Below are positions 19,835 through 61,067 of a stretch of 64,000 nucleotides of DNA, one piece after another. The position numbers and the translations under genes are program-made. The DNA is taken from positions 4,672,001 through 4,736,000 of the forward strand of contig CAVWVQ010000003.1 in NCBI GenBank assembly GCA_963758525.1. Reading direction: 5' to 3'. The notes under the pieces were generated by a model. It was given only the letters and a program-made list of their open reading frames with translations, ran no database searches and had not been told where the DNA came from. This DNA comes from an uncultured Phycisphaerales bacterium. Lineage in GTDB: Bacteria; Planctomycetota; Phycisphaerae; Tepidisphaerales; Tepidisphaeraceae. Within the stretch, counting starts at the first letter, position 1; each line of letters opens with the position of its first letter.

Positions 19835-20008
19835 CACGTTGTGGTGCGGGCTCCCATTCTGCAACGCGGCCCATCGAGCGTCCGAGATAGCCGAACGGGC
19901 CAAAGCACATTGTGGTGCTGGCTCCCATTCTGCAACGCGGCCCATCGAGCGTCCGAGATAGCCGAACGGGCCAAAGCACGTTGTGGTGCTGGCTTCCAGC
20001 CTGCAACG
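19835..20008. repeat. 71-bp tandem repeat (~2.4 copies) containing a REP-like unit
   Basis: Units start at 19835, 19906, 19977; each begins with a variant of TTGTGGTGCTGGCT..CTGCAACG. Confidence 0.85.
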
Positions 20009-20064
20009 GAGCCGGCAAACGCAGTTTGCTCCTTCTCGCCTCGCAATTCGCGCCCGCCCGCCAC

Positions 20065-20649: not shown

Positions 20650-20670
20650 GCCTGCGGACCTCGCAATGGC

Positions 20671-20920
20671 AGGGCGGGATTCATCCCGCCGCTTTCTCGG
20701 CGAGCCAACAATTGGCGGGATGAATCCCGCCCTACGCCGAGTCGATCGCCACTTTCGAGCGCCACACCCTTCGCCCAGGGTGTAACTTTTATTTGTGGCG
20801 ATTGCAGATTTTGCGATCGTAGGGCGGGATTCATCCCGCCGTTTTCTCAGCCGGCCAACAAATCCGCGGGATGAATCCCGCCCTACTCGGAGCCGATCGC
20901 CACTTTCGAGCGCCACACCC
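20671..20920. repeat. REP/BIME-like cluster: two ~150-bp-period units of inverted palindromic repeats
   Basis: (GT)AGGGCGGGATTCATCCCGCC at 20671 and 20819, inverted copies at 20714-20735 and 20866-20886. Confidence 0.85.
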
Positions 20921-20944: not shown

Positions 20945-20973
20945 TAGCCAATCGATGCGTGCTTCAGTATAAT
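20945..20973 (+). promoter_or_regulatory. sigma70-type promoter of the tRNA
   Basis: TAGCCA-N17-TATAAT. Confidence 0.6.
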
Positions 20974-21012
20974 TCCCGAGCGTCGATGGCACCCGTCGCC
21001 GTCGAGAACATT

Positions 21013-21083
21013 TGGGGTATGGTGTAACGGTAGCACAAGCGCCTCTGGAGCGCTTTGTCTAGGTTCGAATCCTAGTACCCCAG
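21013..21083 (+). tRNA. tRNA-Gln(CTG), CCA not encoded
   Basis: TGGGGTA..TACCCCAG acceptor, AGCGC-CTCTGGA-GCGCT anticodon arm, GGTTCGAATCC T loop. Confidence 0.97.
21061..21083 (+). repeat. attL core (23 bp)
   Basis: AGGTTCGAATCCTAGTACCCCAG, identical to 61131-61153. Confidence 0.95.
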
Positions 21084-21283
21084 TTTTTAGCCCTAACATC
21101 CAAAAGCTGGATCTGCGCCATTGGGAAGGCGTTTTTGTGGCTCCGCGGCGGGTTTTTCTCGCGCCGGGCCAATTTCAGGTCAGCACCTAACATCACGGTC
21201 GATAACGCACGAGCAATCGAGCGAGTCCCACCGTTTTCCCCACCACCTCTCTTCCGCCGGTTCGTCACGGCATGGGAGTGGCG

Positions 21284-21691
21284 ATGACACTCCAAACTCC
21301 ACGAGTCGAAACACAGCTTACTTGCCCCGAATGTGGGGCGGCAATGGTCCTTCGTCGCACGCTGCGCTATTTTTATCCCAACGGGAAACCACGCCTCTTC
21401 TGGTCGTGCACGCAATACCCGCGATGTAAAGCCACGCACGGTGCCCATTCCAATGGCGAGCCCCTGGGCGTTCCGGGCAACCAGGCCACGAAGGATGCAC
21501 GCGGCCGAGCCCACGATGCATTTGACCGCCTGTGGAAACGGGAGCGGAATGAAGCCTATGCCCTTATGCAGCGGCTGATGGGGATGACTGCGGACCAGGC
21601 GCACATCGGGCGATTCTCGATCGACCAGTGTGAGCTGCTCATCAAACGCCTGGCGAAGGTCACGTGCCGGCCGGCGGGAGGTGACGCGTGA
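21284..21691 (+). CDS. Zinc-ribbon protein (topoisomerase C4 finger / DUF3268-like)
   Basis: CPECG..WSCTQYPRC, PLGVP, AHDAFDRLW, AHIGRF. Confidence 0.8.
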   Translation: MTLQTPRVETQLTCPECGAAMVLRRTLRYFYPNGKPRLFWSCTQYPRCKATHGAHSNGEPLGVPGNQATKDARGRAHDAFDRLWKRERNEAYALMQRLMGMTADQAHIGRFSIDQCELLIKRLAKVTCRPAGGDA

Positions 21692-21903
21692 GCCGCCCGC
21701 ACAATCCCGGCAAACCTCTGCAGTGCGTTTACTCCGCTTGCCCCACGGCCAAGCAGCCGATTGCCACCGACCAGCTCCGCCACGTGGTGCGGACCTGCGC
21801 CGGTCCGATGCACGGCGACTGTTACCGAGAACACATGAGCCGCGTGGATGAATGGTTTGCACGGGCACGCGCTGCCGGCGCTTTCTCCGGGAGGGCGTCA
21901 TGA
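21688..21903 (+). CDS. Phage hypothetical protein
   Basis: Overlapping start/stop codons at both ends, GGAGG upstream. Confidence 0.6.
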   Translation: MSRPHNPGKPLQCVYSACPTAKQPIATDQLRHVVRTCAGPMHGDCYREHMSRVDEWFARARAAGAFSGRAS

Positions 21904-22094
21904 AACGTCGACCTACCAGGCTCAATCCACAAAGACGCTGGAGCTGGAACGATCCATTTGGCGACTCCGAGCGAGCACGTCGAAGGATCCGCAAACAGCT
22001 TGGCCGCAAGACAGCCCGCGCCAGCTTCCGCCGGCTCCTGCACTGCGCTGAACGGAAACTTGCGTCCCTCATGGCGCGGGAGGCGAGCGTATGA
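21900..22094 (+). CDS. Phage hypothetical basic protein
   Basis: ATGA overlaps at both ends. Confidence 0.55.
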   Translation: MKRRPTRLNPQRRWSWNDPFGDSERARRRIRKQLGRKTARASFRRLLHCAERKLASLMAREASV

Positions 22095-23183
22095 GCACTT
22101 CTACCACTTCGTGGGTCATTCAAGGCGATGCCACCCATCTCCCCCTAGCCGATCAATCTGTGGATTTGTTATTCACCAGTCCGCCGTACGTCGACGCTCG
22201 CACCTACGGAATTGGCGCGCAGCGGCATTGCATTGAGTGGGTGGATTGGATGCTAAAGGTGGTTCGCGAAGGATGCCGTGTCAGCCGCGGTCTCGTACTC
22301 ATCAATTGCGCCGGCGTAACCCGCAAACATCGCTATCAGCCCGCGCCTGAAATGCTCCTGTCCGAATGGTGGAAGCAAGGGGGCGAGTGCTGGCGGCCGG
22401 CGTATTGGCATCGCGTGGGCATCCCGGGGTCTGGTGGCAAGCAGTGGCTGCGTGCGGACGTTGAATACGTTCTGGCGTTCAAGTTGGCGAATGGGGCAAT
22501 CCCCTGGTCTGACAACACTGCCTGCGGACATGTGCCCAAGTGGGGTCTCGGCGGCGAGATGAGTTACCGGCATGCGGATGGCAAGAGACGGAACGCTCGC
22601 ACGGGAGCCGCACTTTTGGCGGTTCGTCGCCAACGATGGGGCGGAGGAGGCACGAGTTTTGGACGTCGCGCGAACGGCGAGAAAATCGCGCCTGCGGGCG
22701 AGCGTAATGAATTCGGTTTCTCTGCAATCAGCGGGAACGGCAGATACGCCAGTGGAAAGCCCAAGCCGCTTCCAATTCGCGCCCCACGCGGGAAATCATC
22801 AGGTGATCTAAATGAGAACGGATCGACGGCTCCGCCGGTATTGGCCAATCCTGGGAACCTCCTGAAGATTATCGTTGGCGGCGGTGTCATGGGGTCAAAG
22901 TTGGCACATGAAAATGAGGCCCCATTCCCTGAGAAGCTACCTGAATTTTTTATCAAGTCGTATTGCCCCCCCCATGGATCTGTTCTCGATCCATTCTCCG
23001 GAAGCGGCACCACGATAGCGGTTGCGCGTCGATTGGGTCGCTATGGAATCGGATATTCGAACGGGTCAATGTCTGGGAAATCGCAGGCTGTCGGAGCCAG
23101 TAGTCGCCAGGGCTGCCAAACGTATCCGCAAGGTCCAGCTCGCAGATTCCCAGGACTCACTATTTCCAGTGGAGGTTGCATGA
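22091..23183 (+). CDS. Phage beta-class DNA methyltransferase, frameshifted near 23050
   Basis: FTSPPY, HENEAPFP, DPFSGSGTT; alternate frame DIRTGQC..LFPVEVA* ends at an ATGA overlap. Confidence 0.85.
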
Positions 23184-23313
23184 GCGACCAACTGCAACAA
23201 ACCACCGAGTTCGACAACGCCCTGGCACCGCGTTGCCCAGGACCAGCGCGTCGCCGCCGGCATGCCCCTGTGCAACCGCGAAAATGGCCCCGACGTGACG
23301 CTGGATTAACGCC

Positions 23314-23508
23314 ATGGACGAACAGATCCAAAAATCCGGTGAGTACGACAAGGCGATGGCTGCCGCGCTTCGCGAAGAAGAGCAACGCAATCTCTTCGCC
23401 AAGGCTGCCGGCCGCGCCGTCCTGCTCGCCGTCGCGCATGCGGACCCTGGCACGTTGCCGCCGGCCGTGCGCGAGGCCCGGGAAAGGATGCTGGAACTCA
23501 AGCCATGA
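23314..23508 (+). CDS. Phage hypothetical protein
   Basis: 64 aa, ATGA overlap with the primase. Confidence 0.55.
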   Translation: MDEQIQKSGEYDKAMAAALREEEQRNLFAKAAGRAVLLAVAHADPGTLPPAVREARERMLELKP

Positions 23509-24410
23509 TCCCCCGCGAGCTGAGAACCTCGAAACAGCGGCCGTGCCCGATCTGCGGTCATGGGACCTGGTGCCACTTTCACTCGGACGGCGGGGCCGTC
23601 TGGTGCGGACGCGTTCCAGGCGGACGCCCCTGGCGCGATGGGTGGATCCATCGCCTGGACGGAACGGCGCGACTGACGCCATCGCCGGCACTGGCCACGA
23701 TGGAACAACGACCCCGCGTGCTGCGGGATTTCGCACGCATGGCCTGCCGCTTCGCTCGTCAGCTCACGGCCGATCGCGCCCGCCGCCTGGCCGACAGCCT
23801 GCAGCTCAACGTCGGCAGTCTTCGACGTCTCGGCGCCGGATGGGCCGACGCGGAGCAGATCCGAACACAGGACACCAAGTGCCGTGGCGCCGGGTGTTGG
23901 ACGTTCCCCACCTGCGACGGCGCCGGCCGGATCGTCGGGATCCGCCTCCGCACGCTTGAAGGTTTCAAGTACACGATCGACGGCAGCGACGGCAGTGGAC
24001 TCTGTCTGCCTCGGGATCTGGCGACGGGAGGACTGTTGATCGCGCCTGAGGGGCCGACGAGCTGCGCGGCGTTGCTGGTGCTCGGACTGCGGGCGGCCGG
24101 TCGTCCCAACAACCGGGCCGGTGTGGACCATCTGCGGGCGCTGGTGACGCGACTCAAGACACAACGCCTGATCGTCCTTGGCGACAACGATTATCGCGTC
24201 GGGCCGCGCGGGCCCGAATGGCCGGGACGGGATGGCGCGATTGCAACGGCGTCACGATTGCGCGGGACCTGCTCTGGCGGCGTGCTGTGGGCGATGCCGC
24301 CACCGGGAATCAAGGACTCTCGGGAGTGGCTCGCCGCGGGCGCGACGGCCGCGGAGGTGATGGAGCGGATTCAGGCGACGACTCAGGGAATGGACCGGCA
24401 TGCAGGCTGA
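23505..24410 (+). CDS. Zn-finger/Toprim primase-like protein
   Basis: CPICGHGTWC, IVGIRLR, PEGPTS, VLGDND, GIKDSREW. Confidence 0.8.
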   Translation: MIPRELRTSKQRPCPICGHGTWCHFHSDGGAVWCGRVPGGRPWRDGWIHRLDGTARLTPSPALATMEQRPRVLRDFARMACRFARQLTADRARRLADSLQLNVGSLRRLGAGWADAEQIRTQDTKCRGAGCWTFPTCDGAGRIVGIRLRTLEGFKYTIDGSDGSGLCLPRDLATGGLLIAPEGPTSCAALLVLGLRAAGRPNNRAGVDHLRALVTRLKTQRLIVLGDNDYRVGPRGPEWPGRDGAIATASRLRGTCSGGVLWAMPPPGIKDSREWLAAGATAAEVMERIQATTQGMDRHAG

Positions 24411-26145
24411 CGAGGGAACAAATGACGCCTCGGGTGCCAACGGCGCCCATCGAACCAACGGGAACGGTAATGGCCACGGCAACGGTAGCAATGGCCATGA
24501 CAAAAACTCTGTGAATCGGCTTGTCGGAGGTGGGAAGGGATCACCACCGGCAGTCAGCGACGTGGATGCGAAGTCAGACGGAAAAGTGGAAATCATGGTG
24601 CCCGGAGCCCACGTACACCCTCGCGGTCCAGTCGAAGTCACCGAAAATGACTTCGCTGATGCCGTATTGTGCGCTCTCCCCGAATATCTGCTCTACAGGA
24701 CTGGACGCACAATCGGCGTCCTCACAGGCCAGAGCGGGAGCCGGGAATTTTATCCCAGCGACACCAGACACCTCCGCCTCTTCGCATCGACCCACACACG
24801 CCTGGTCAAATGGAACCGCACAGAGAAGGGCAATCCGTTCAAAACCAAGGTCCTGCACGGCAACGATCTCGCCTCACTGATCCTCGGCCAGGCCGAGCTC
24901 TCTGATCGAGTGAGGCGGCTCGACCGCATCGTGCACTATCCGGCATACGGCCGTTCGTTCGAGCTGCTGCGCCCGGGCTGGACGGAGGGAACTTTGTACG
25001 ACCCTCCCGACGAGCTGAAGGATCTTCAGCCGGAGACAAATCGCGAGGTGATCACCCAGACGCTCGACGATTTGACTATCGACTTCCCCTTCCTGGAAGA
25101 GGACGGTGACGGCGGAGCTGCCAACCGTGAGAACTTTTACGGGCTGCTGCTCACACCGATCGTCCGCACCGCACTGGAAGGCAACATCCCGCTGCACCTG
25201 GTCAACGCGCCGCTCGAGCGGACTGGCAAGAGTAAGTTGGTCGAAGAGGTTCTCGGCGGGATCATCCTCGGCACACAGATGGCAGCGCTGCAGCAGGTCG
25301 GCGAGGGGGAAGAGTTCGATAAGCGTGTCCTGGGCCTGCTCAAGCAGGCTGAGACGCTTGTGCATCTGGACAATGTCAATGATGGCCTAGCGCTCGGCCA
25401 GCTCGCCAGCGCTCTGACGGCTACATATTACCAGGGCCGCACGCTCGGCAAGAATGAGATGCTCAAGCTGCTCAACACCCTAATCTGGGTGGTCAGCGGC
25501 AACAACGTCGAAGCATCCGGTGAGATCATCAAACGCGTCATCCCAATACACTTACAGCCAAAAACCGACAAGCCTGAGATGAGACCGCTGGATGATTTCC
25601 AGCACCCTGACCTGCGCCGCTATATACGCGAAGTCCGCTGTCAGGTGCTCGGCGTGCTGATCGGCATGGTTGAGAATTGGAAGCAGGACAAACGGCCGCT
25701 CCATAGTCAACCGATGGGCGGGTTCGAACAGTGGTCGGCCATCATCGGGGGGATTCTGCAGGCCAACGGATACGTCAAATGGATGAGCAACGCCTCATCC
25801 TGGCGTATCTCCGTCGATCGACGTGGGGGTGACCTCGAAGGGCTCGTTGATGCCTGGGCGCAACGCTATGGCGATCATCCAATTAAGGCCAAGCACGTCG
25901 TCGCTCTCGCCATTGAATCTGGAGCCTTGGAAGACCAGCGCCAGGGGGCGAAGGATGGGGGGGCCAGAGCAATTGGCAAGATCCTGAGTCGCTCCATTAA
26001 CCGGCCTGTGGGGAACTACCGGATCGCGCTGAAGATCTCTCACAACAATCGGTTTTATAAGCTGCTCGGTGCACCCCACAAGGAGGGTGTGGTGTTGGAA
26101 GATGAACACCACTCGATGAGCACGCCGGACATCTTCGACGGGTGA
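24400..26145 (+). CDS. Primase-associated P-loop helicase/ATPase
   Basis: ERTGKSKL, VHLDNV, GRTLGKN, VSGNN. Confidence 0.75.
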   Translation: MQADEGTNDASGANGAHRTNGNGNGHGNGSNGHDKNSVNRLVGGGKGSPPAVSDVDAKSDGKVEIMVPGAHVHPRGPVEVTENDFADAVLCALPEYLLYRTGRTIGVLTGQSGSREFYPSDTRHLRLFASTHTRLVKWNRTEKGNPFKTKVLHGNDLASLILGQAELSDRVRRLDRIVHYPAYGRSFELLRPGWTEGTLYDPPDELKDLQPETNREVITQTLDDLTIDFPFLEEDGDGGAANRENFYGLLLTPIVRTALEGNIPLHLVNAPLERTGKSKLVEEVLGGIILGTQMAALQQVGEGEEFDKRVLGLLKQAETLVHLDNVNDGLALGQLASALTATYYQGRTLGKNEMLKLLNTLIWVVSGNNVEASGEIIKRVIPIHLQPKTDKPEMRPLDDFQHPDLRRYIREVRCQVLGVLIGMVENWKQDKRPLHSQPMGGFEQWSAIIGGILQANGYVKWMSNASSWRISVDRRGGDLEGLVDAWAQRYGDHPIKAKHVVALAIESGALEDQRQGAKDGGARAIGKILSRSINRPVGNYRIALKISHNNRFYKLLGAPHKEGVVLEDEHHSMSTPDIFDG

Positions 26146-26257
26146 GGGTGTGTTTGGGTGTATGTGGGTGTGTTATTCCCCGTCGTCTGTCATGAGCTGA
26201 CTTGGGTCCCTGAGAAGCGACGGCAGGTAACACACCCAAACACACCCACATACACCC
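26146..26257. repeat. Inverted arrays of three 10-bp iterons; candidate replication origin
   Basis: GGGTGTRTKW x3 at 26146-26175 and inverted x3 at 26228-26257. Confidence 0.75.
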
Positions 26258-26295
26258 TGACCTTGTTTTTAGCTCATTAGAGAAGGTTTATTCAG

Positions 26296-26484
26296 ATGGA
26301 AGAAAAGGAGTTCATCCTCAGACTGAAATCGGGACCGCAACGGACTGGAGACGATCCCTACATCCGGCTCAGGAAGGCACTCAAGGCACTTGTGCGGGCA
26401 TATGGATTTCGCTGTGTGGATTGCAACGAGGTCAACCAAGCAACCACCGCCACGACTGAGAAAGGAAAGGCACATGCATCATGA
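26296..26484 (+). CDS. Phage hypothetical protein
   Basis: RLRKALKALVRAYGFRCV; 62 aa. Confidence 0.65.
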   Translation: MEEKEFILRLKSGPQRTGDDPYIRLRKALKALVRAYGFRCVDCNEVNQATTATTEKGKAHAS

Positions 26485-26798
26485 GGAAATCCCCCCCCCC
26501 AGTTGTGACGCTCCACGTGGGACAGTCGGTTCCATGGCCGACGGCGCCGGATGGCGTGGCCCAGGTCGAGGAGCTGCTGCGGAGCAACGTCGGCCTGCTC
26601 TATCTGCGTCGCGGCCGGCTGTGCCGGGCACGCGTGGCGGCGGGACGCATCGCGAGATTGATCCAGTTGGCACCGCTGCTGATTCAGCAGGACAACCTGC
26701 TGCAGCGGGCCATCGTTCGTAAACGCCAAAAGTCGTTCGAACTGAACGACAGAACAGGAAGTTTCCGTGGGAATAACTTACGAAAAGTGCGAGCGTGA
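26481..26798 (+). CDS. Phage hypothetical protein (end uncertain)
   Basis: ATGA overlap with the previous ORF. Confidence 0.45.
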   Translation: MRKSPPPVVTLHVGQSVPWPTAPDGVAQVEELLRSNVGLLYLRRGRLCRARVAAGRIARLIQLAPLLIQQDNLLQRAIVRKRQKSFELNDRTGSFRGNNLRKVRA

Positions 26799-27309
26799 GA
26801 TCCGCGAGATGATCCGGGAGCTAATCGAGGCCAATCACCCGGATCTGCGGGATGCGGAAGTCACCGTCGGCTGCCTGATGGCCTGCAAGCGCGAAAGCGA
26901 CGGCACGCTGTTGCCAGAGTCGGCGGTCAAACTGCACGGCTATGAGTGTGCCGCGGTGGTCCGCGTCACCCCGCTCAAGCAGCGGGCGCATGGTGTTGCC
27001 GACTCTGAAATCGTGATCGATGGTAATAGTTGGGGGGACCGGCCTCTCCTGGAACAGCATGCGATCCTCGATCACGAGCTGGAGCACATCCAGGTCCTGA
27101 AGTTCAGCCAGCGTAAAGGCGGCGAGATCAAGACGGACGATCTTGGCCGTCCGCGGCTGAAACTGCGCCTGCACGACTGGGAAATGGGCGGCTTCGCCAG
27201 CATCGCCAAGCGGCATGGCAGCCACGCCCTGGAAGTCCAGGCGGCGCGGTCATTCCAGGACAAACACGGGCAATACGTATTCGAATTTGCCGCCTCACAC
27301 GCAGCGTGA
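26767..27309 (+). CDS. Putative phage metallopeptidase
   Basis: ILDHELEH (HExxH), LRLHDWE, IAKRHG. Confidence 0.75.
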   Translation: MGITYEKCEREIREMIRELIEANHPDLRDAEVTVGCLMACKRESDGTLLPESAVKLHGYECAAVVRVTPLKQRAHGVADSEIVIDGNSWGDRPLLEQHAILDHELEHIQVLKFSQRKGGEIKTDDLGRPRLKLRLHDWEMGGFASIAKRHGSHALEVQAARSFQDKHGQYVFEFAASHAA

Positions 27310-27352
27310 TGCGTACGGCGGCAACCATCAACAAGCAAACCAAGGAGATCCA

Positions 27353-29635
27353 ATGACAACAGCAACGATCGATCGACCGCACACAAAACGCGGAAGCAAA
27401 TCCACCAACCCGGATGGCAACGGCGCAGCTCACACGCCAGCGCCCGGCGATGACCTCAACGAGCTGCGCGCCCAGCTCGCCAAACAGGAGACAGCCACCC
27501 AGAGCATGTACGGCGACAAACTCGACAAGGCAACCGCCAGGCTCACCGAGCTGCGCAACCGGGTAGCCGCCGGCGAGGTTCGGGCCCTGCCGCTCCCGGC
27601 GCCGGCGTCGCTGACGTTCGAGGAGCGGGATGTCGCGATCGCGACGATTGTCGTCACCGGCAACCACCGCGAGATCCACGACGAAGCGGAGACGCTTCGC
27701 CTGGCCAGGACGCTGCAGACGGTCGGCCTGCAGCAGCGAATCGGACTGCGGTCCCAGGGCGATGGCAGTTTTGAGTTGATCTTCGGTTCGCGTCGCCTGG
27801 CGGCGGCCAAGCTCAACGCGTGGGAGGAGATCCCGGCCAAGGTCTACCCGCACACCATCACCGCGGCCGAGGTGGAGATCATCCGCACGATCGAGAATTT
27901 TGGGCGGAAGGACCTGACGCACATTGAACGGGCCATCGCTGTGGCGCGAACGATCGATGCTATCCAGGCAACACTCGACAAGGGACGCAGGCACGGCGGG
28001 CACGGCGGAATGGACGTAGTGGATCTGCGTACTGAAGAGCAGAAGGCGGAACTACGCAGGCAGGTGAACCTGGCTGCCGTGGCCAAGGAGAACCCCGAGC
28101 TGGCGGATGCGATCAAACTCCAGATCGCAATCGACGACGCCGGCGGCGTCAACGCCTACGTCGGCCTGCAGCTCGGCTTCCCCGCCAAGTGGGTCCAAGA
28201 CCACGCGTACGTGTCCAAGCTGGGCGCCAAGGCCCGCGAGTTGCTCGCCGCGCACCGCATCGACATCGGCCACGCGCGCGAGCTGGTGAAGCTTGGCGAT
28301 CGGGACCGAGCGGACCAGATCGCCGACATGGTCGCCCGCGATGAGAAGGGTTTGGGCGGGAAGTCGATCGAGCAATGCCGCAACTGGGTGATCGAGCATC
28401 TGCGGTCACTCAAGATTGTCCCGTGGCGGCTAGACGTCGCTTTCGGCCGCGGCGTTGCGGGATGCACGGGCCACGCCTGCAGCACGTGCCCGTTCAACAG
28501 CAAGAGCGACCCGGATCTCTTCGGCGGCGCCATCGCCGATGAGCCGGCGGCGGGTACATGCACGAACGAGGCGTGCTGGCAGGCCAAGACGGACATCGTC
28601 GCCAAGGATGTGGGCAAGTTTGTCGCCAAGGCCAGGACAGCAGTGGAGAAGCACGACACTCCCATCACCGAGAAGGAACTGGGCAAGCTGATCCCGCTCC
28701 ATGTCAAACCTCCGACAGCGATCCGGAAGGCTAAGAAGGAACTGGAGCCGGCGGCGTCTGCCAGCGGCGAGGGAACTCCCGACTCCCGCGAAACCGGAGG
28801 GACTCCCGAGGATAAAGCCAATGGGAAGCTCAACGTCGCCCTGGGCAAATGGGAATCAGAGCTGACAAAGCTGGTGATCGCCCAGACCACGGAGCACCCG
28901 GTGCGGTTCGCGCTGCTGGCGCTGCTTGGATGTGTTCCTCCATTCGATCGGGGCTATTTCCCGGGAGATCAGCCGGCGGAGTTTGTCAGCGAACATCAAC
29001 ACGCGCTTGCCCTGGCGGGCGGTGGAATCGGTGAGATCCAGGAGCTGGCCAGCCTGGCGATCGAGGCCAAGGCGGAACCGCCGGTCTTGGACGGCATCAC
29101 CGGGGAAATCTGTGCCTTCCTCTTGCAGAAATGGGGAATCAAACACAACGCAATGCCGAAGCTGGAAGACTTCCTCACGCGCCCGAAGGCGGAAGGAAAG
29201 AAGGGCGCCGGCAAACTGAAGGGGGAGCCGGCCGCTGAATTGGGCGTTGCGTTCGCCGCTGCCCAGAAGGCCTGCGTGCTGGAGACACTGAGCAACCACA
29301 GGGGCAACAAGCCGGTCGCTGCCACGCCGCTGGAGCTGAATGATCGCCTGTGGGTCCACGTAGGCGCTTCATACAAAGATGCGCTGTGTACCGTCGATCT
29401 TCTCCCGCTCTATCACGTCGAGGATTTCCGGAACAAGTTCGGCGCGAAGTTCGAGACCAGATACACCGTGGGCCTCGGGCCCGACGCCACGGATTCAGAG
29501 CGCCGCGAGTTCTATACAGGCGTCATCGTCCGCGTGAAGAAAACCGAGATGGCCATCGCTCCGAGCGGCGAGGGGCGGACGCTGCTTTTTACCGACACCA
29601 CGTCGGAGGCCGGGGAGGTGGACGATGTCGAGTGA
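27353..29635 (+). CDS. ParB/RepB/Spo0J-family protein with Cys-rich C-terminal extension
   Basis: LIFGSRRLAAA, IENFGRKDL, CSTCPFNS..DLFG..CTNEACW; AAGGAG upstream. Confidence 0.85.
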   Translation: MTTATIDRPHTKRGSKSTNPDGNGAAHTPAPGDDLNELRAQLAKQETATQSMYGDKLDKATARLTELRNRVAAGEVRALPLPAPASLTFEERDVAIATIVVTGNHREIHDEAETLRLARTLQTVGLQQRIGLRSQGDGSFELIFGSRRLAAAKLNAWEEIPAKVYPHTITAAEVEIIRTIENFGRKDLTHIERAIAVARTIDAIQATLDKGRRHGGHGGMDVVDLRTEEQKAELRRQVNLAAVAKENPELADAIKLQIAIDDAGGVNAYVGLQLGFPAKWVQDHAYVSKLGAKARELLAAHRIDIGHARELVKLGDRDRADQIADMVARDEKGLGGKSIEQCRNWVIEHLRSLKIVPWRLDVAFGRGVAGCTGHACSTCPFNSKSDPDLFGGAIADEPAAGTCTNEACWQAKTDIVAKDVGKFVAKARTAVEKHDTPITEKELGKLIPLHVKPPTAIRKAKKELEPAASASGEGTPDSRETGGTPEDKANGKLNVALGKWESELTKLVIAQTTEHPVRFALLALLGCVPPFDRGYFPGDQPAEFVSEHQHALALAGGGIGEIQELASLAIEAKAEPPVLDGITGEICAFLLQKWGIKHNAMPKLEDFLTRPKAEGKKGAGKLKGEPAAELGVAFAAAQKACVLETLSNHRGNKPVAATPLELNDRLWVHVGASYKDALCTVDLLPLYHVEDFRNKFGAKFETRYTVGLGPDATDSERREFYTGVIVRVKKTEMAIAPSGEGRTLLFTDTTSEAGEVDDVE

Positions 29636-30362
29636 CATTCAATCCACCAGCGACATCACCGTCCGCTTGGTGCAGCAGATGGGCGGTGATCACATGGTTG
29701 TCGCCGCGGCCAAAGTCAGCACCTGTGGGGACGATGCGCTGAAGTTTGCCTCTCCGGAGAGCGCGGAGGCTAACACTGGTCTGATCAATTATCTGATGGC
29801 TCATCGCCATGGTACGCCCTTTGAGCACGCGTCGATGACGTTCTTCGTGCGCACGCCGATCTTCGTCTGGCGCGAGTGGCACCGCCATCGCATCGGCTTC
29901 TCCTACAACGAGGAATCCGGGCGGTACAAGAAGCTCGATCCGCTCTTCTGGATCCCGGACAGGGAAAGAAAGCTGGTACCGGCGCCGGATCACACCTCGG
30001 CGCGGCCGAAATTCCAACGTCTCGCGGATGACGATCCCAAGTATCGGGATATTTGCGACGTGCTGCGGCATTCTTACTTTGCCTCCTACCGCGCGTATGA
30101 GCATCTCCTGGATCGGGGAGTTGCCAAAGAAGTGGCACGGGCATGCCTTCCGGTGGGCATCTATTCATCCTGCTGGGTGACGTGCAATCCACGGTCGCTC
30201 ATGGCGTTCCTGTCGCTGCGAACGCATGACGAGGCGGCGACGTTCATTTCGTACCCGCAAGCGGAGATCGAGTGTGCGGCCCGGGCCGCAGAGCAGATCT
30301 TCGCCGAGGGCTGGCCGCTGACGTACGCGGCGTTTGTGAAACACGGCCGCGTGGCGCCATAA
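29625..30362 (+). CDS. thyX: Flavin-dependent thymidylate synthase
   Basis: HGTPFEH, RHRIGFSYNEESGRY, KEVARACLP, FLSLR. Confidence 0.95.
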   Translation: MSSDIQSTSDITVRLVQQMGGDHMVVAAAKVSTCGDDALKFASPESAEANTGLINYLMAHRHGTPFEHASMTFFVRTPIFVWREWHRHRIGFSYNEESGRYKKLDPLFWIPDRERKLVPAPDHTSARPKFQRLADDDPKYRDICDVLRHSYFASYRAYEHLLDRGVAKEVARACLPVGIYSSCWVTCNPRSLMAFLSLRTHDEAATFISYPQAEIECAARAAEQIFAEGWPLTYAAFVKHGRVAP

Positions 30363-30375
30363 CAGAGGAATCGAC

Positions 30376-31362
30376 GTGGGAACTGAAACCGGCATCGAGT
30401 GGTGTCACCATACATTTAACGCGTGGCGCGGCTGCACCAAGGTCAGTGACGGCTGCAAATTCTGCTACGCGGATCGTGATTCAAAGCGCAATCCCAAGGT
30501 GCTGGGCGTGTGGGGGCCCAACGGAACGCGGGTGATCGCCGCCGAGGCGTATTGGCAGCAGCCGATCAAATGGAACCAGGCGGCGCGCGAAGCAGGCGAG
30601 CGACGGCATGTGTTCTGCGCCAGCCTGGCAGATGTGTACGAAGGGCGCGACACGATGCCAGAGCCATCGTGGGGGCCAGTGGAGGCAGCGGGCAAGCGAC
30701 TGCTGAAGGTCATCCACCGCACACCCTGGCTGGATTGGCTGCTGCTCACCAAGCGGCCGCAGAACATCATGTCGCTGACACAGGCGGCGCTCGATCCTGA
30801 GGATCTGACCGTCGCCGGGGATCCGGTTGGCGATGGCCTGCTCTCCGCCAGCTTCAAGGAGCTCTTCCCGACCGTCTGGCTTGGAACCAGTGTCGAGAAC
30901 CAGGAAGCGGTCCTTCGGGTGCATGAGCTGATGAAGGTGCGCGCGGCGGTCTGGTTCATCAGCGCCGAGCCGTTGCTCGGGCACGTGCAACTGCCTGAGG
31001 AGTTCCTCGCCCCGACATTCGCTGATGATGATCCGCGCACGCAGCGGTGGGTGATTGTCGGGGGTGAGTCAGGATCCCAGGCGAGGCCTATGCATCCTGT
31101 ATGGGCTGAATCGATCCGCGATCAGTGCGTTGCTGCCGGTGTCCCCTTCTTCTTCAAGCAAAACGGCGAATTCCGAACTACCACACTGGAGGAAGCTGAG
31201 GCGGACGATCCGCGCATCGTCACCATCAAGGAGACCGAGGATCACGACGATTGCGATAGATGGCCCGTGACGCGCGTCGGCAAGCGCGTCGCCGGCAGGA
31301 TGCTCGACGGGCGGGAGTGGTCCGAGTTTCCGCGGCCGCGGGCGGAGGCTGCGCATGTCTGA
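30376..31362 (+). CDS. DUF5131 / phage gp37-gp68 family protein
   Basis: IEWCHHTFN, CTKVSDGCKFCYA, LTKRP, SAEPLLG, WVIVGGESG, PFFFKQ. Confidence 0.92.
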   Translation: MGTETGIEWCHHTFNAWRGCTKVSDGCKFCYADRDSKRNPKVLGVWGPNGTRVIAAEAYWQQPIKWNQAAREAGERRHVFCASLADVYEGRDTMPEPSWGPVEAAGKRLLKVIHRTPWLDWLLLTKRPQNIMSLTQAALDPEDLTVAGDPVGDGLLSASFKELFPTVWLGTSVENQEAVLRVHELMKVRAAVWFISAEPLLGHVQLPEEFLAPTFADDDPRTQRWVIVGGESGSQARPMHPVWAESIRDQCVAAGVPFFFKQNGEFRTTTLEEAEADDPRIVTIKETEDHDDCDRWPVTRVGKRVAGRMLDGREWSEFPRPRAEAAHV

Positions 31363-31870
31363 ACTCTTCCCCCTGGGCACTGCGCCCACTTCCGCGGTGA
31401 TCAGCGACTGCGGGCAATACCGCTATCAGCTCGGACGGCAGTGGCACGACCGCAAGCCGCTGATCGGCTTCGTGATGCTCAACCCGTCGACCGCAGACGC
31501 CGAGGCGGATGATCCCACAATCCGCAAATGCCTCGCCTTCGCCCGTGCGATGGACGGCGGCGGCATCCTGGTCGGCAATCTATTTGCCCTGCGGTCGACG
31601 GATCCCGATGAGCTGCTTACGCATCCAGGGCCGATCGGCCCTGAGAACAACGAGCACCTGCAGATCATTCGCCAGCGGTGCCCGCGCATCATCGTCGCAT
31701 GGGGCAATCACCGCGCCGTCAGTCGGAACCCGCTGCGTGTCCGCATTGCGCTGGATCTGCTGGGCGATGTTGAGTGCCTCGGCACCACCAAGGACGGCAG
31801 CCCGCGACATCCGCTTTACCGCAGCGGCAGCATGAAGCCAATCCCCTACCGAGAAGTAATCGCCGCATGA
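31355..31870 (+). CDS. DUF1643 family protein
   Basis: CGQYRY, MLNPSTAD, DDPTI, NLFALRSTDP, PRHPLY. Confidence 0.9.
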   Translation: MSELFPLGTAPTSAVISDCGQYRYQLGRQWHDRKPLIGFVMLNPSTADAEADDPTIRKCLAFARAMDGGGILVGNLFALRSTDPDELLTHPGPIGPENNEHLQIIRQRCPRIIVAWGNHRAVSRNPLRVRIALDLLGDVECLGTTKDGSPRHPLYRSGSMKPIPYREVIAA

Positions 31871-33426
31871 CGAAACCAGCAAACACCATCCGCCTCGGCT
31901 ACGCGATCGACAGCGGCGAGCCGGTCGATCTGCCGCTGGGGCACCTGTGCGTCACCGGCCAGACGCAGCTTTCCGGCAAGACCACGACACTGGAAGGCCT
32001 CATCGCGCGCAGCGGCCGGCGGGCGGTGTCGTTTGTGACCAAGCGCGGGGAGGGCGCCTTCTCCGGTGGTCGATCCATCCCGCCCTATTTCCGGGAACGG
32101 GCGGACTGGGTGTTCGTCGCCTCCCTGATCGACGCCACGCTGGGCGAGAAGAACAAGATGCTCCGGTCGTTCCTGATGAAGGTCTGCCGCAACACCAAGA
32201 CGCTGGCTCAGGTTCATGCCAATGTGAAGGAAGCGCTGGACGGCGCCCGCGGGTTCGCCGAATCGATCTACACGGAGATCGACGGATACCTGGATCTGGT
32301 GATGCCACAACTCAAACGCCTGCCGCCGGCGCGGGAGATCACGATCGGGCCCGGCCTGAACGTCATCGATCTGACGGAATACTCGACCGAGATGCAGGGG
32401 CTCGTGATGCGGTCGGTGATGGAGCACATCTACGAGAAAGAGGATGGCGTCATCTGCATCGTGCCCGAGGCCTGGGAGTTCCTGCCGCAGGCCCGCGGCT
32501 CGCCGGTGACGCTGGCGGCAGAGGAGCTGATTCGCAAGGGGGCGGTCCTGGGTAACTACCTGTGGATCGACAGCCAGGACCTCAGCGGCATCAACGCCCG
32601 AATCCGCAAGAGCGTCTCCGTCTGGATCCTCGGCGTGCAGCGCGAGAGCAATGAGGTCAAGCGGACGATCGCCCACGCCGGCCAGGCGGCGCGGAGTCTG
32701 GCCGTGGCGGATATCACGCTCCTGGAACGCGGCCAGTTCTGGGCGTGCTTCGGCCGCCACGCGATCAAGACGTACGTTCAGCCCGAGTGGATGGACGAAA
32801 AGCAGGCGCGGGCCATCGCGATGGGCCAGTCGGAAACGCCCGCGCCGCCCGTCCGCCAGAAACGGCTGGACCAGTCGCCGATGCCGCCGCGGGAGGTGTT
32901 TCTCACGCCGCCTGCAGTTGCCACGATTGCCCCCATCCAAACCAAGAAAGGCTCCCCGATGAGCAAGGAACTCGAAGCGAAAATCGACCACCTGACGAAG
33001 CTGCTGGGGGTCGCCACTCCCGCCCCCTCGCACGCGGCGGCCCCCTCTCCTCCATCGATGGATGGTGACGAAGAGGCGCTTTATCAGCGGTTCAAGTCGC
33101 GGCTGATGCGGGAGTCTCCCGACCTGTTGCGCGTGCTGGCGATCGAGCCGTTGCTCGAAGTGGAGATCACCCGCGAGACGATCCAGATCGACGGGACAAG
33201 CCTCAAGGGTCGACTCGCCCAGATGCTCCAGCGCGGATGGTTTGCCGAGCCAAAGACTGCCAGTGCAGCCCGCAAGGAACTCGCCCGCACTGGCCCCGAC
33301 GTGAACAGCGGGAACCTGTCGCGCGATCTCAACAGCCTGGTGAAGATGGGTTTTCTCACCGACGAAGCGGATGGCTATAAGGAAGTGGCCAGGATGAAGA
33401 GCAATATCCACCGGAAAGGCGGTTGA
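31867..33426 (+). CDS. HerA/FtsK-like ATPase with probable C-terminal winged helix
   Basis: TGQTQLSGKTTT, IVPEAWEFLPQ, IRKG, DSQ. Confidence 0.75.
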   Translation: MTKPANTIRLGYAIDSGEPVDLPLGHLCVTGQTQLSGKTTTLEGLIARSGRRAVSFVTKRGEGAFSGGRSIPPYFRERADWVFVASLIDATLGEKNKMLRSFLMKVCRNTKTLAQVHANVKEALDGARGFAESIYTEIDGYLDLVMPQLKRLPPAREITIGPGLNVIDLTEYSTEMQGLVMRSVMEHIYEKEDGVICIVPEAWEFLPQARGSPVTLAAEELIRKGAVLGNYLWIDSQDLSGINARIRKSVSVWILGVQRESNEVKRTIAHAGQAARSLAVADITLLERGQFWACFGRHAIKTYVQPEWMDEKQARAIAMGQSETPAPPVRQKRLDQSPMPPREVFLTPPAVATIAPIQTKKGSPMSKELEAKIDHLTKLLGVATPAPSHAAAPSPPSMDGDEEALYQRFKSRLMRESPDLLRVLAIEPLLEVEITRETIQIDGTSLKGRLAQMLQRGWFAEPKTASAARKELARTGPDVNSGNLSRDLNSLVKMGFLTDEADGYKEVARMKSNIHRKGG

Positions 33427-33429
33427 GCC

Positions 33430-33879
33430 GTGACACAATTGCAGCCCCAATCCGGCAATGTGCTCGATCGCATCGAGTCGTCGATCCCCGACGCCGAGGA
33501 CGCAACGGCGGACCAGCTCCTGGAGCTGCTCGACAAGCTCGACTTCGTCGCCGAGCGGATGGCCCAGATCGAAGCCAGGCTCATGCCGGCGGTGATCAAG
33601 TTCCTCGAAGCCGGCGGCAAGCTCGAGCGGGGAACGGTGTTCTACACGATCAACAAGCAGAAAGAGACCAAGTGCCGCAACGCGGCGGAGAGCCTGCAGC
33701 AGATCCTCGAGCTGCTCGGCACAGAGGAGGCGGCCAACTGCCTGGCTAGCCAGCCGTGGAAACACGGCGCGGTGAAGAAGCTGATCGCGAAGGACGACTT
33801 CGAGCGGCTGTTTGAGACGAAGGAAAAGAAGAGCGTCGAGCTGAAGGTGCACAAGGTGGATCGGGCATTTCTCAAGTGA
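33430..33879 (+). CDS. Phage hypothetical protein
   Basis: 149 aa in operon context. Confidence 0.7.
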   Translation: MTQLQPQSGNVLDRIESSIPDAEDATADQLLELLDKLDFVAERMAQIEARLMPAVIKFLEAGGKLERGTVFYTINKQKETKCRNAAESLQQILELLGTEEAANCLASQPWKHGAVKKLIAKDDFERLFETKEKKSVELKVHKVDRAFLK

Positions 33880-34205
33880 GGTGCGTGAACGACAGAACCA
33901 ATCAACAGAACGCCTGGTATTGGGCGTGCATCGTCACGCCGTTCGCCGATTACCTGACGGCGATGGATGATCCGCACACGCCCGACGAGGTGCATGAGCA
34001 TTTCAAGTCGCGGTTCCTGCTGATTCCGACCATCGACTATGACACCGGGGAGCTGCTCGGCGAACGTGTCGGCTCGACACGCGATCTGTCCACCGTCGAG
34101 ATGGCCGATTACTGCGAACGCATCCGCAAGTCATTGGCCAAAGAGCACGGCTTCGTTGTGGATGATCCGGACCCGATGTGGAGAAATCCGCGGAGAGTGG
34201 CATGA
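33876..34205 (+). CDS. NinB-like protein
   Basis: RTNQQNAWYW, EVHEHFK, STRDLSTVEMADY. Confidence 0.65.
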   Translation: MRCVNDRTNQQNAWYWACIVTPFADYLTAMDDPHTPDEVHEHFKSRFLLIPTIDYDTGELLGERVGSTRDLSTVEMADYCERIRKSLAKEHGFVVDDPDPMWRNPRRVA

Positions 34206-35498
34206 CTACGGCGCCGTCTCCGTCTGCAGCACGCTCTGTGACACCGTGACCGAGCCAGTCCCGAGGCGTTCCTTCCGCCCCGACGTCCAGCGGGTCACTT
34301 CCCACGTATACGCCTGATTCGCCGGCGAGCTGACCAGGTTCATCGCGGCCGCAGAAAGCGTCCAGGTCACCGTCGTCGAGCCGCTGGCCAGTGCCACCGC
34401 CAGGGATCCCAGCGATGCACTGGACGCGGCCGCGCCATTCTGTGTGAGCAGCCCATCGCTGCCGGATCCGCCATTGGTCACACGCAACAGGATCAACGCA
34501 TCCGCGTCGGTGCCCGCTCCGGAGTTGGCCGCCTGGTCGCTCTCCGGATTAGCCTTGATCGCGAACGTCATTTGTGTCCATCCGGCCGAGCTGACGTTGG
34601 CGGTGATGGACTGCTGCCAGTAGAGATCCGCGCCCACGACAAAGCTGGCGTTGACCGCCGCCGGATTGCCGCTAGTCGAGGATCCGCTGAGCGTCACCGG
34701 AACGAAGCTCCCGCCGACGGCCGTGCCGGCCCAATCGACGACGTCGACCTCCAGCAGACCATTGCCGTCGAGAGCGACCGCCGTGCCGCCGATCTCGGCG
34801 ACGTTGACGCTGTTGGTCAGGCTTGTCACCACTGGCAACGTGGCGCCGGCGGCAAACGATGCGGTGGAGATCGCGCCGGCGGCAAACCCGCTGACACTGG
34901 TGACGACTGGAATAGTCGCGCCGGCGGCAAAGGCGGCCGTGGTGATGGCGCCGGCCGAGAAGCTGCCCACCTGCACGACGACCTGGGGATTGCTCTTGAC
35001 GTAATTGCTGCCGTCGAACTGGAGCTTGCCGGCGGCGGTGTTGATGGCGGGAAGATCGTCGAGGTAGCCGGCGCGCGTGCTGGTGATCCGCGTGGCCAGG
35101 TTGCCGGTATCGGTTTTCACCGCCGCGATGTCGGCGCTGACGGACGCCGCGGGTGTGCCCAATACCGTAGCCAGCAGGCTCGCGGGATCCTCGCCGGGGG
35201 CGTATTCGCTGACCGACACGCCACCACCGCCGCCGACGCACGTGCCCGATGGCGTGCTGTTGCTGGTGTAGACGCTGACGGTGTAATCAGCCGAGGCGAC
35301 ACCCGAGGGTGTGGTCAGCGTATAGAGCCCGCTGGTCCCCTGCTGCGTGGCCGCGATCGTATAGCTTGCGAAGTTGGTGTCGTTCCAGGCTTCGAAGGCA
35401 GGCGTCGCGGTGTTCCAGGCGTGCAGATCCGAGGCGCGGCGGTATACGAAGTAGACCGCGCTGAGGATCGTCGTGGACTGGAAGCTGTCGATCGCCAT
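34206..35498 (-). CDS. Putative tail fibre/virion protein
   Basis: Ala/Ser/Thr-rich with a duplicated GAI(T/S)TA(A/S)FAAGAT motif; last gene of the minus-strand structural block. Confidence 0.6.
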   Translation of the reverse strand: MAIDSFQSTTILSAVYFVYRRASDLHAWNTATPAFEAWNDTNFASYTIAATQQGTSGLYTLTTPSGVASADYTVSVYTSNSTPSGTCVGGGGGVSVSEYAPGEDPASLLATVLGTPAASVSADIAAVKTDTGNLATRITSTRAGYLDDLPAINTAAGKLQFDGSNYVKSNPQVVVQVGSFSAGAITTAAFAAGATIPVVTSVSGFAAGAISTASFAAGATLPVVTSLTNSVNVAEIGGTAVALDGNGLLEVDVVDWAGTAVGGSFVPVTLSGSSTSGNPAAVNASFVVGADLYWQQSITANVSSAGWTQMTFAIKANPESDQAANSGAGTDADALILLRVTNGGSGSDGLLTQNGAAASSASLGSLAVALASGSTTVTWTLSAAAMNLVSSPANQAYTWEVTRWTSGRKERLGTGSVTVSQSVLQTETAP

Positions 35499-35517
35499 TG
35501 TGGATCTCTATCGGCCA

Positions 35518-36579
35518 TCAGACCCGGACGCTCACGACGGCACTGACGCTGCCGGGGAAATTATTGGTGAAGGTGGTTTCGGTGGTCAGGCTGCCTCCGC
35601 TGCCGTCGCCCCATTCAGCCGTAAAGCAGTCTGTCGCGGCGCTGTTGAGGCTTGCGTGCCGAACGTCAACGGGACCGGCGACCGTGCTTCCAGCGGCGTA
35701 CATCTGCCAGCAGCCGACCTGCACCACAGTGCTCGAAACGGACGTCAGAACCGACAGGCGGTAATAGCGGTAGGATGTGGAGTTGCCGGTGCTGAACGTC
35801 CGTGTTTGCGAGCCGGTCCATGTGTAGCTGCTGGCCGACTGATCGTCGAGCGTGGTCCAGGTCGAGCCGTCATTGCTGCCTTCCCATTTCCAGGATTTGG
35901 GGTTCTGTGTCAGCGTCGCGGTCGTTGCCTGCACCGAGTACCCGGAAATCACAGTCCCGGTCCCGAAGTCATATTCGAGCACGGCGGTTCCCGAATCTCC
36001 CACTCCCGAGGCCCACCCGTTGGCGCTGGTGGACCCTGTCATCGCGCGCCACGGCTCATAGCCTGCGGAATAGAACGTGCTCGACGACGCGGTTCCACTG
36101 GGCGTCGTAGCGCTGGTCATCATCGGGATCTGATTCGCGCCGAGATTGGTGATGCTGGCCATCGCGAAACATTCGCGCACGCTGGCGGAATCTGCGGCAT
36201 GTGTCACCGTCAGCGTGCCGCCGGATGCCATCGTCCCCGACGCGCTGGTCACCGTACTTCCGGCGATCGCAATCTGCGCCACGCCGCTGCTCGGATTGGT
36301 TACCGTCGCGCCGGTAAAGCTCATCGTGCTGGCGGTGACTGTCGTCGTGCCGTCAGTGGTGATCACATTGCTGCCGGAGCCGGTCGCCCCGGTCGCCCCG
36401 ACCGCGGCCCACAAGTCCAGGTTGGTCGCGTCGAAGGATCCGCCGCTGGTGAAGCCGGTCACGCAAACGTAGGTCTGCCCGCCGTGCGTGAGCACGTCAT
36501 AGGGCGCGTAGGCCGTCGATGCCGCCCACGCGCCGCGGAAGGTGAAGCCCTGGCCAGGTTGGGAGCCGCTGAGGTTCAT
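35518..36579 (-). CDS. Tail fibre-like protein with carbohydrate-binding repeat and discoidin (F5/8C)-like domain
   Basis: WAASTAYAPYDVLTHGGQTYVC; LEYDFG, PKSWKWEGSNDGSTWTTLD, YRYYRL. Confidence 0.75.
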   Translation of the reverse strand: MNLSGSQPGQGFTFRGAWAASTAYAPYDVLTHGGQTYVCVTGFTSGGSFDATNLDLWAAVGATGATGSGSNVITTDGTTTVTASTMSFTGATVTNPSSGVAQIAIAGSTVTSASGTMASGGTLTVTHAADSASVRECFAMASITNLGANQIPMMTSATTPSGTASSSTFYSAGYEPWRAMTGSTSANGWASGVGDSGTAVLEYDFGTGTVISGYSVQATTATLTQNPKSWKWEGSNDGSTWTTLDDQSASSYTWTGSQTRTFSTGNSTSYRYYRLSVLTSVSSTVVQVGCWQMYAAGSTVAGPVDVRHASLNSAATDCFTAEWGDGSGGSLTTETTFTNNFPGSVSAVVSVRV

Positions 36580-36585
36580 GGGTGC

Positions 36586-36888
36586 TTACTTGCGAAAGAC
36601 GATGCCGTACGTGACGCCCGTTGCCGTGCCGGCATCGCCCTTGATCGTCACCTGGTGGATGGCGTTGGAGCCTTCGGCGAAATACTGTTTCTCGCCGGGA
36701 GCGATGCTGATGAAATCGCCGGGCGCGTGCAGGCCCAGGCAGTTCACCAGCACACCGAACGAGGATGAGGATTTCACGGCAACCATGAACGTGTTGCAGG
36801 TATAAGCGGCATCGGACCCGGTCGAGGTCGAGTCATAGACGACACTGCCGCCGGTGGTGATGCTCTGGTTGTTGTTCGCGGTTGCCAT
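36586..36888 (-). CDS. Small virion-associated hypothetical protein
   Basis: 100 aa, AAGGA upstream. Confidence 0.65.
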   Translation of the reverse strand: MATANNNQSITTGGSVVYDSTSTGSDAAYTCNTFMVAVKSSSSFGVLVNCLGLHAPGDFISIAPGEKQYFAEGSNAIHQVTIKGDAGTATGVTYGIVFRK

Positions 36889-36897
36889 AGTTGTTCC

Positions 36898-37044
36898 TTA
36901 ATCGAATCCAAAGCCAAAACACAGGCCCGGCATGAGTTCTTCCCCTCCCCCAGTAGTAGAGGGGGAGGGGGAGGCGCTATACCCCAGGACGATATTGCCC
37001 AGGTAGGAATTTGCAGTGCCGAGTTGCGCGGTGAAGCCGATCAC
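36898..37044 (-). CDS. 48-aa ORF absent from the ORF track
   Basis: GTG overlaps the upstream TGA; MIGFTAQLGTANSYLGNIVLGYS..LCFGFGFD* fills the gap. Confidence 0.55.
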   Translation of the reverse strand: MIGFTAQLGTANSYLGNIVLGYSASPSPSTTGGGEELMPGLCFGFGFD

Positions 37045-39398: not shown

Positions 39399-39451
39399 TT
39401 TTGTTTCGCGCCATCCCGACGCCGATCAGCCTGCGCCGGCGGTGTAGAGGG

Positions 39452-39874
39452 TCATTTCGTAGCCTGAGACAGCACAAAGCCGCGAGTGATTGCCAGAGGC
39501 AGAGACTTTTCGGTGACGATCGGAAAATTTTCGGCGTCCCTGATCTGGTAGCACAAACCACCATCACTATGTTCCGCAGTTAATCGCCACCGCCGCGGCC
39601 ACAGTACTCCCTCGAAAATCTCCAAGGCGACATCATTGCTGGCGTAGTTGTCGATGTTGAGACGTTCGATCACTTCTTCCGTCACCACCTCGGAATCGAA
39701 AAATGTCCGGCTCCATTCGCTTCCGTCCGCGAAGACGTGCCGCCAATTGCAGAGCGTCTCGGGACCGCCTTCCCATTCGTTGAACTCGCCATGCTCGATG
39801 CGCCGCCCCAGAAGACGATGCGCCTCCACAGTTAGTTCGGTGGGCGTGGCTTTTTGTGCTTGATCGCGTGTCAT
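39452..39874 (-). CDS. Hypothetical protein, phage ABA-sandwich-like
   Basis: NYASNDVALEIF..SLPLAITRGFV pattern. Confidence 0.5.
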   Translation of the reverse strand: MTRDQAQKATPTELTVEAHRLLGRRIEHGEFNEWEGGPETLCNWRHVFADGSEWSRTFFDSEVVTEEVIERLNIDNYASNDVALEIFEGVLWPRRWRLTAEHSDGGLCYQIRDAENFPIVTEKSLPLAITRGFVLSQATK

Positions 39875-40010
39875 TCCATCGGGTCCCAAAACGCCAAAAG
39901 CGCCACCAGCGGAATCGCCCACAGCATATGCAGGCGGCTCACTAGCGGCGAAAACTCGTGACGAGCCTTCGACACTTCGGCAACGGCGGATTTGCAGCGG
40001 CGCGCGATGG

Positions 40011-41567: not shown

Positions 41568-41570
41568 GGG

Positions 41571-41903
41571 TCACCTGTGCACATGGAAAGTGATATCGAC
41601 CGCCGCGCCCAGCAGGGTCAGGAACGCGCCGATTACGACGGTCCAAAACAACCCTTTTCGTTCCTTCCGCTGGCCCTCGATCTTCGCCTCGTTGTCGACC
41701 GCCTTCTTCTTGAACTCCGCCACGTCAGTCTCGATGGCGATGAGCCTGTAGATCAGCCCATCCTTGATCCTGTCGCCTTCCCCGCCGTTGATCGTCTGGT
41801 TGATCTTCCCGACGGTCGTGAGGATTCCATCGAGCTTCAGATTCACGTCGGTCAGCTCAGCGTTGACCAACTTCCGTCGTCGCACTTCTGGTTTCTCAGC
41901 CAT
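41571..41903 (-). CDS. Coiled-coil protein with C-terminal TM (holin/XhlA-like layout)
   Basis: GLIYRLIAIE..LFWTVVIGAFLTLLGAAV. Confidence 0.6.
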   Translation of the reverse strand: MAEKPEVRRRKLVNAELTDVNLKLDGILTTVGKINQTINGGEGDRIKDGLIYRLIAIETDVAEFKKKAVDNEAKIEGQRKERKGLFWTVVIGAFLTLLGAAVDITFHVHR

Positions 41904-53189: not shown

Positions 53190-53212
53190 TCTTTTTGATT
53201 CCGAGCCCAGCC

Positions 53213-56845: not shown

Positions 56846-56846
56846 C

Positions 56847-60939: not shown

Positions 60940-61067
60940 AGCTCTGCCGCAAGGATGCCATCCAACTCACAGAGGCGATGGGAGATTTGGCCAGGCGAAA
61001 GCTGATTGTCGCCCAACACGCTCCGGCGCTCCCCAAGTGGGCGAGCGAGAAGCGGAGGGCACAATGA
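60830..61067 (+). CDS. Small phage protein after int, probable extra G in a G run near 60930
   Basis: AGGAGG upstream; MIFIQTAG..HFVGG then SVKLCRKDAIQL..KRRAQ* in the shifted frame. Confidence 0.45.

Follow-up and report, generated by a model that had tools for sequence, protein, structure and literature searches.

Two described systems come closest to the arrangement considered here. For the haloarchaeal pleolipovirus SNJ2, the published account reports that orf26 forms over attP downstream of int on excision, that ORF26 is translated and its operon co-transcribed, and that nonsense mutations in orf19–26 each block replication (PMC13107129). For Tn916, the source describes transfer genes expressed only from the circle, with a T1 insulator and the canT antiterminator (PMC11658703, citing Celli and Trieu-Cuot 1998). 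A mycobacteriophage repressor system had been offered as the precedent in the first-pass annotation of the present locus; in phage BPs, attP lies within the repressor gene and immunity is integration-dependent (PMC4557955), and SNJ2 orf26 and Tn916 proved to be the closer parallels (PMC13107129, PMC11658703). Literature searches, judged on titles and opening lines of abstracts and with most subscription papers outside their coverage, listed no precedent in a bacterial tailed phage, which does not imply absence.

We analysed a stretch of 64,000 nucleotides from an uncultured Phycisphaerales bacterium (the window), which contains an integrated element, and compared this element with the above accounts. 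As in SNJ2, the int genes and the replication genes lie at opposite ends and would form one compact same-strand operon on the circle. An ORF containing attP, downstream of int, is complete only on the circle, both in the window and in a related metagenome contig (L010), and neighbouring genes overlap compactly, as assembled in L010 and at most joints in the window, where two of the overlaps depend on accepting probable frameshifts. SNJ2 differs in having an archaeal host, a rolling-circle Rep-Arvir, a promoter inside int and an ORF26 that is treated as a functional protein, whereas this is an element of bacterial tailed-phage type with primase-type genes, known here from its sequence alone, and the peptide encoded across attP is unconserved between the two attP sites. 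The layout is SNJ2-like, yet the element is outside the SNJ2 virus family, with matches to tail, tape-measure, capsid and primase-type genes instead of pleolipovirus structural genes.

As in Tn916, integration would part a promoter and xis-int from the downstream genes, and a terminator close to the end of the element might stop transcription entering from the host; unlike in that conjugative element with its RNA antiterminator, an ORF lies over att here, and the hairpin is weak and not clearly conserved. No conjugation families were detected among the ORFs scanned, so the element does not class as a Tn916-type ICE. As in BPs, attP lies inside a reading frame and integration alters the C-terminus of the product. 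In BPs this frame encodes the repressor and the integrated form is active, whereas the frame in our element matches neither an HTH nor any other domain and it is the circular form that is predicted to matter; in a related phage (G778, an IMG/VR record) the repressor-like HTH gene is separate, upstream of cro.

The element and the reading frame across attP

The element is bounded by a 23-bp direct repeat (21061–21083 and 61131–61153) corresponding to the 3′ end of a tRNA-Gln(CTG) gene, and closing the circle in silico gave 40,070 bp. With this repeat at both ends and a tyrosine integrase and an excisionase beside att, it is a tRNA-targeting tyrosine-integrase prophage. The features around the att sites are as follows.

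20945–20973, + strand: sigma-70-like promoter upstream of the tRNA, directed into attL and the left arm (10/12 consensus matches, consensus only)
21012–21084, + strand: host tRNA-Gln(CTG), the integration target
21061–21083, + strand: attL core, 23 bp
21061–21287, + strand: 3′ portion of the frame across attP, with a stop that overlaps ATG 21284
21115–21137, + strand: weak terminator-like hairpin and T run inside that frame, no more stable than shuffles (z about 0)
21225–21244, + strand: probable integrase arm-type site (P′ arm), a motif shared with L010
21239–21296, + strand: pyrimidine tract and hairpins; in the predicted fold they cover the SD (21274–21278) and the first left-arm start
21284–21691, + strand: first left-arm gene, DUF3268 zinc-finger protein
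59528–59749, + strand: excisionase-like HTH gene, its stop overlapping the int start
59746–60939, + strand: tyrosine integrase, the last 36 aa probably a frameshift product
60830–61067, + strand: small gene with an AGGAGG SD, probably interrupted at a G7 run (60925–60931)
61054–61130, + strand: SD (61054–61058), ATG 61064 and 5′ portion of the frame across attP, which contains a P-arm motif (61071–61084)
61131–61153, + strand: attR core; the lysogen frame runs on into host DNA

The genes adjoining att are all on the + strand, bearing out the first-pass statement that both arms share one orientation, and attP is located mid-way in a run of same-direction early genes. The same annotation had described a 97-aa frame from ATG 61064 to TGA 21285–21287, and circularization in silico returned an identical product: 30 codons through the end of the core followed by 67 left-arm codons, with GGAGG upstream of the start and the stop overlapping the first left-arm ATG. 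We refer to this frame as the bridge. In the integrated form it ends in host DNA at 61219, as also described, giving a product of 51 aa. At attL, the host base preceding the core forms a TAG (21060–21062) in the bridge frame, so no frame from the host side reads into the bridge in the integrated state. Within the bridge, TTG 21135 is in frame, has an SD-like GGAAGG and could start translation in the lysogen; its counterpart in L010 has no such SD. The bridge had no Pfam or PHROG match, and atlas searches with the window and L010 peptides gave no usable match, with low recognition.

Upstream of the bridge, all 32 aligned integrase homologues (of 35 non-self matches, three long and distant ones being left out) end at about 60833, and the window integrase extends 36 aa beyond this point, which suggests a frameshift just before 60830 that had escaped the first pass. 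The C-terminal residue is A, Q or E in 30 of the 32, which fits an overlapped next start, as seen in the DNA for two of two. A homologue search with the small gene at 60830 was blank. Its likely stop overlaps ATG 61064 if the G7 run is one base too long, the condition that the first-pass annotation had itself set on an overlap with an upstream TGA; as assembled, the ORF from ATG 60830 shares the bridge frame and reads 175 aa on the circle. If the G7 run is real, this ORF is itself the bridge, so that a connection with the int operon exists whichever reading holds.

Frame changes relative to a sister genome were present in 16 of 95 orthologue-like ORFs (15 loci, 42,512 aa) drawn from 300 kb of a same-genus genome, an apparent frameshift rate in this assembly of about one per 7–8 kb of coding sequence. 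The bridge contains nine homopolymer runs of at least four bases, and its frame in the window could be wrong given this indel rate. Frameshift-based findings anywhere in this genome call for the same care.

The left arm carries, all on the + strand, genes for DUF3268, a methylase, primase-type proteins, ParB, ThyX and a NinB-like protein, the first of them linked in a chain of 4-nt overlaps (starts at 21284, 21688, 21900 and 22091).

22091–23959, + strand: DNA methyltransferase, domain at aa 9–322, the ORF probably extending past the true end
23505–26145, + strand: primase-like gene (23505–24410) and primase/polymerase-associated gene (24400–26145), with PHROG matches (phrog_239, E 9e-5; phrog_19930, E 5e-13; phrog_10537)

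The methylase ORF (22091–23508) covers two similar small genes beyond its domain, probably reflecting another frameshift. A perfect 19-nt inverted repeat (arms 26156–26174 and 26239–26257) in the 150-bp gap that follows the primase-type genes is a candidate replication origin. A left-arm promoter active in the lysogen had been named as a finding that would speak against an excision-dependent operon; a scan limited to sigma-70 types found none in the 13 kb from 21085 to 34300, against 2.1 expected. The hairpin at 21115–21137 was the only + strand terminator-like call in the left arm. We gave less weight to suppression of a terminator as the principal mechanism, since this hairpin is weak and none was called on the + strand of L010. 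Several repeats and small ORFs were also noted outside the element, namely REP-like palindromic repeats with a period of about 150 bp directly upstream of the tRNA promoter (20653–20920), three tandem 71-bp repeats upstream of a DUF2959 gene (19835–20013), and two short + strand ORFs outside attR (61213–61615) that give the impression of a small antitoxin/toxin-type pair, with no Pfam match.

Condition of this copy and its relatives

Head-packaging, repressor/immunity and early-promoter regions were not found in this copy. Terminase, portal and repressor had no match among the 54 ORFs scanned, and the capsid match covers only profile positions 165–381 of 390, the N-terminal part being missing; the element thus does not have the full gene set of an intact temperate tailed phage (terminase, portal, complete capsid gene, repressor/cro). 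The truncation lies at a junction:

56791–57000: 5′-truncated major capsid gene (− strand) meeting a 5′-truncated pentapeptide-repeat gene (+ strand)

The pentapeptide-repeat gene at this junction carries 15-bp tandem repeats. Searches of the host genome with the G778 terminase, portal, protease, repressor and cro found nothing, though distant forms could be missed, and contig C6 was rejected as a missing phage piece. This copy is probably defective, or mis-assembled or deleted near 56.8 kb, so its layout has likely been inherited and does not operate in this element. Elsewhere in the late region, three + strand ORFs with good codon scores (52758–54392) break the − strand structural block, a possible inversion; large − strand genes at 34206–41903 resemble tail fibres or spikes (F5/8 type C, beta-helix, hydrolase-like), two of which have similar copies elsewhere on the chromosome; and a stand-alone response-regulator receiver gene lies at 41896–42393.

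Close relatives were few. Integrase alignment scans returned two viral, six genome and one metagenome loci, of which only G778 (L002) and L010 were close. A single-protein viral scan gave one weak match, a scan with P0035 found none, and an xis alignment scan recovered L002 again and an unrelated prophage. A close integrase homologue carries a Phycisphaerae label. Close integrases were found in none of 140 genomes of the family, none in the order, and none in two largely overlapping class samples of about 400. A search of the phage collection was blank, and the arm motif was absent from 400 other genomes of the phylum. Integrases of about 30 % identity (L004–L040), many with a convergent tRNA downstream and a different geometry, were not used. 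Of the motif scans of viral contigs, one was blank and one yielded an unrelated attP, that of the complete phage L041, in which a 3′ fragment of a tRNA is flanked on either side by a doubled arm motif (L041:3001–3300) and genes converge on attP. That the motif also flanks this attP suggests that it is an integrase arm site.

The G778 integrase is 58 % identical to that of the window. There, repressor-like and cro-like HTH genes stand back to back and are followed by xis, by int and by a methylase gene that overlaps the stop of int, placing int within a cro-led run in this phage family; the opposite end of this linear contig carries, on the same strand, genes for a replication initiator and DnaC-like proteins. 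G778 showed no att site, and two attP sites, those of the window and L010, were compared in all.

The metagenome contig L010 encodes an integrase 60 % identical to the window's, and was not selected for an attP-crossing frame. Over 21 nt it is identical to the 3′ end of tRNA-Asn(GTT) of the host genome, without containing a tRNA gene, and both flanks carry the window's arm motif, at a core-to-arm distance of 161 bp in both; we infer from these features that it holds the attP of a relative. Its flanking genes and target tRNA differ from those of the window. A chain runs from int through an HTH gene, a GIY-YIG-like gene and an 83-codon frame over the core to a start behind GGGAGG, with a 4-nt overlap at every joint as assembled, the last start being predicted from its SD and overlap because the contig ends 19 nt later. 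The expectation that relatives would retain an open frame across attP, coupled at both ends, was thus borne out in L010, the sole relative with a readable attP. The arm-to-start (59 versus 71 bp) and start-to-core (70 versus 16 bp) distances of the two sites differ by multiples of three. The L010 frame had no family match and a blank homologue search. BLASTP gave no alignment between the two bridge peptides, which suggests that it is translation itself, rather than the product, that matters.

Access to the downstream start and competing readings

We consider that the attP-crossing frame likely acts as a translational bridge from xis-int to the replication arm, and would put the probability of this reading at roughly 60 %. 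By passing ribosomes to a poorly accessible start, the bridge would confine expression of the replication arm to the circle. Predicted folding is consistent with such a start. In the window, opening the downstream RBS would cost 17.4 kcal/mol, a value reached by 2 % of 300 host genes (host median about 8 kcal/mol); this occlusion was matched by 180 of 500 upstream shuffles, still amounted to 11.4 kcal/mol when the upstream part was masked, and is due in part to a hairpin spanning the start. In L010 the corresponding cost is 26.4 kcal/mol, reached by none of the 300 host genes and four of 500 shuffles, and it dropped to 3.7 kcal/mol with the upstream part masked, the SD being predicted to be sequestered by a specific anti-SD stem. 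A two-sequence consensus fold has 12 pairs, four of them changed on both sides, which is weak evidence.

It is textbook knowledge that a ribosome, on terminating, opens a sequestered start and that Rho targets RNA lacking translating ribosomes; rho is present in the host. On the circle, an early promoter, which the repressor/cro arrangement of G778 suggests to lie ahead of xis-int, may drive transcription, and translation would shield the 286-nt att stretch from Rho or from the weak hairpin. A ribosome ending at 21285–21287 would then melt the structure over the SD and restart at 21284, leaving the bridge peptide as a probable by-product. In the lysogen the left arm would be severed from the early promoter, and read-through from the tRNA promoter would arrive without a ribosome owing to the in-frame TAG just before the core. 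Counting against this reading are the number of attP sites (two), the possible start at TTG 21135, the weak hairpin with no + strand counterpart called in L010, the indel rate of the assembly, and G778, in which int overlaps a methylase and no att site is seen. The first-pass view that integration severs the early operon is partly supported, in that same-strand xis-int genes run into the methylase and replication genes; a working bridge protein gains no support, neither family, homologue nor peptide conservation having been found.

A less probable competitor is a topological cut of the operon, as in Tn916, in which the attP frame is incidental, read-through perhaps involves an antiterminator and translation of the first left-arm gene begins from an SD of its own. 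The bridge stayed open in 16 % of dinucleotide shuffles and in 23 % with the att motifs fixed, a probability per site of 0.15–0.26, and the window was itself selected for its open attP frame. An open frame of this length, taken alone, is within chance, just as the first-pass annotation had cautioned. The codon score of the bridge is also negative (−7.7 in total, its codon use resembling non-coding sequence), the two peptides fail to align, and the fixed core-to-arm spacing explains a common frame over the arm motif; the account of Tn916 moreover attributes read-through at att to a cis RNA antiterminator, the putative orf5 protein being dispensable (PMC11658703). Against an incidental frame stands the double coupling in L010, which, unlike the window, was unselected: among 818 host spacers of 150–350 bp between same-strand genes, 6 showed it under a strict rule and 36 under a loose one, a null built on our own simple gene caller. 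The predicted specific sequestration of the L010 SD, rarely matched by shuffles, points the same way.

It is improbable that the bridge is instead a functional small protein made from the circle only, for instance an excision-sensing regulator or a replication accessory. Such a role would suit its good SD and start, and ORF26 of SNJ2 is reported to be both translated and needed for replication as judged by a nonsense mutation (PMC13107129), a result that polarity could, we consider, also explain; the absence of Pfam and PHROG matches, the lack of any homologue of the L010 frame, the low atlas recognition and the unaligned peptides all argue against it. Least probable is a left arm with its own promoter (non-sigma-70 or phage-activated) beside a frame that is a chance or assembly product of a decayed prophage, which the frameshift rate, several broken-looking genes, the missing terminase, portal and repressor and the sigma-70-only promoter scan would allow, but against which the repetition of the layout in L010 and the position of int inside the cro-led run of G778 speak.

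Implications for excision-gated replication

The excision switch itself is already known; what looks new here is its placement in a tailed bacterial phage family and a bridge peptide that is not conserved. At somewhat short of even odds, we tentatively extend the translational-bridge reading to a family of Phycisphaerae-associated temperate phages, whose attP might act as a translational switch in which a bridge ORF, arising only on excision and free of sequence constraint, melts an anti-SD hairpin on the first replication-arm gene, gating replication by topology at the stage of translation initiation, independently of the repressor and despite a host tRNA promoter directed into that arm. If the reading is correct, excision-gated replication would reach beyond an archaeal virus and a conjugative transposon into the tailed phages of bacteria, and would gain an additional mechanism in the form of translational coupling across attP onto a sequestered RBS. 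It would also offer a compact, recombinase-controlled translation switch. Frames of this kind, spanning attP, are invisible in prophage annotations. For the phages themselves, it would explain how a prophage situated downstream of an active tRNA promoter avoids replication in place.
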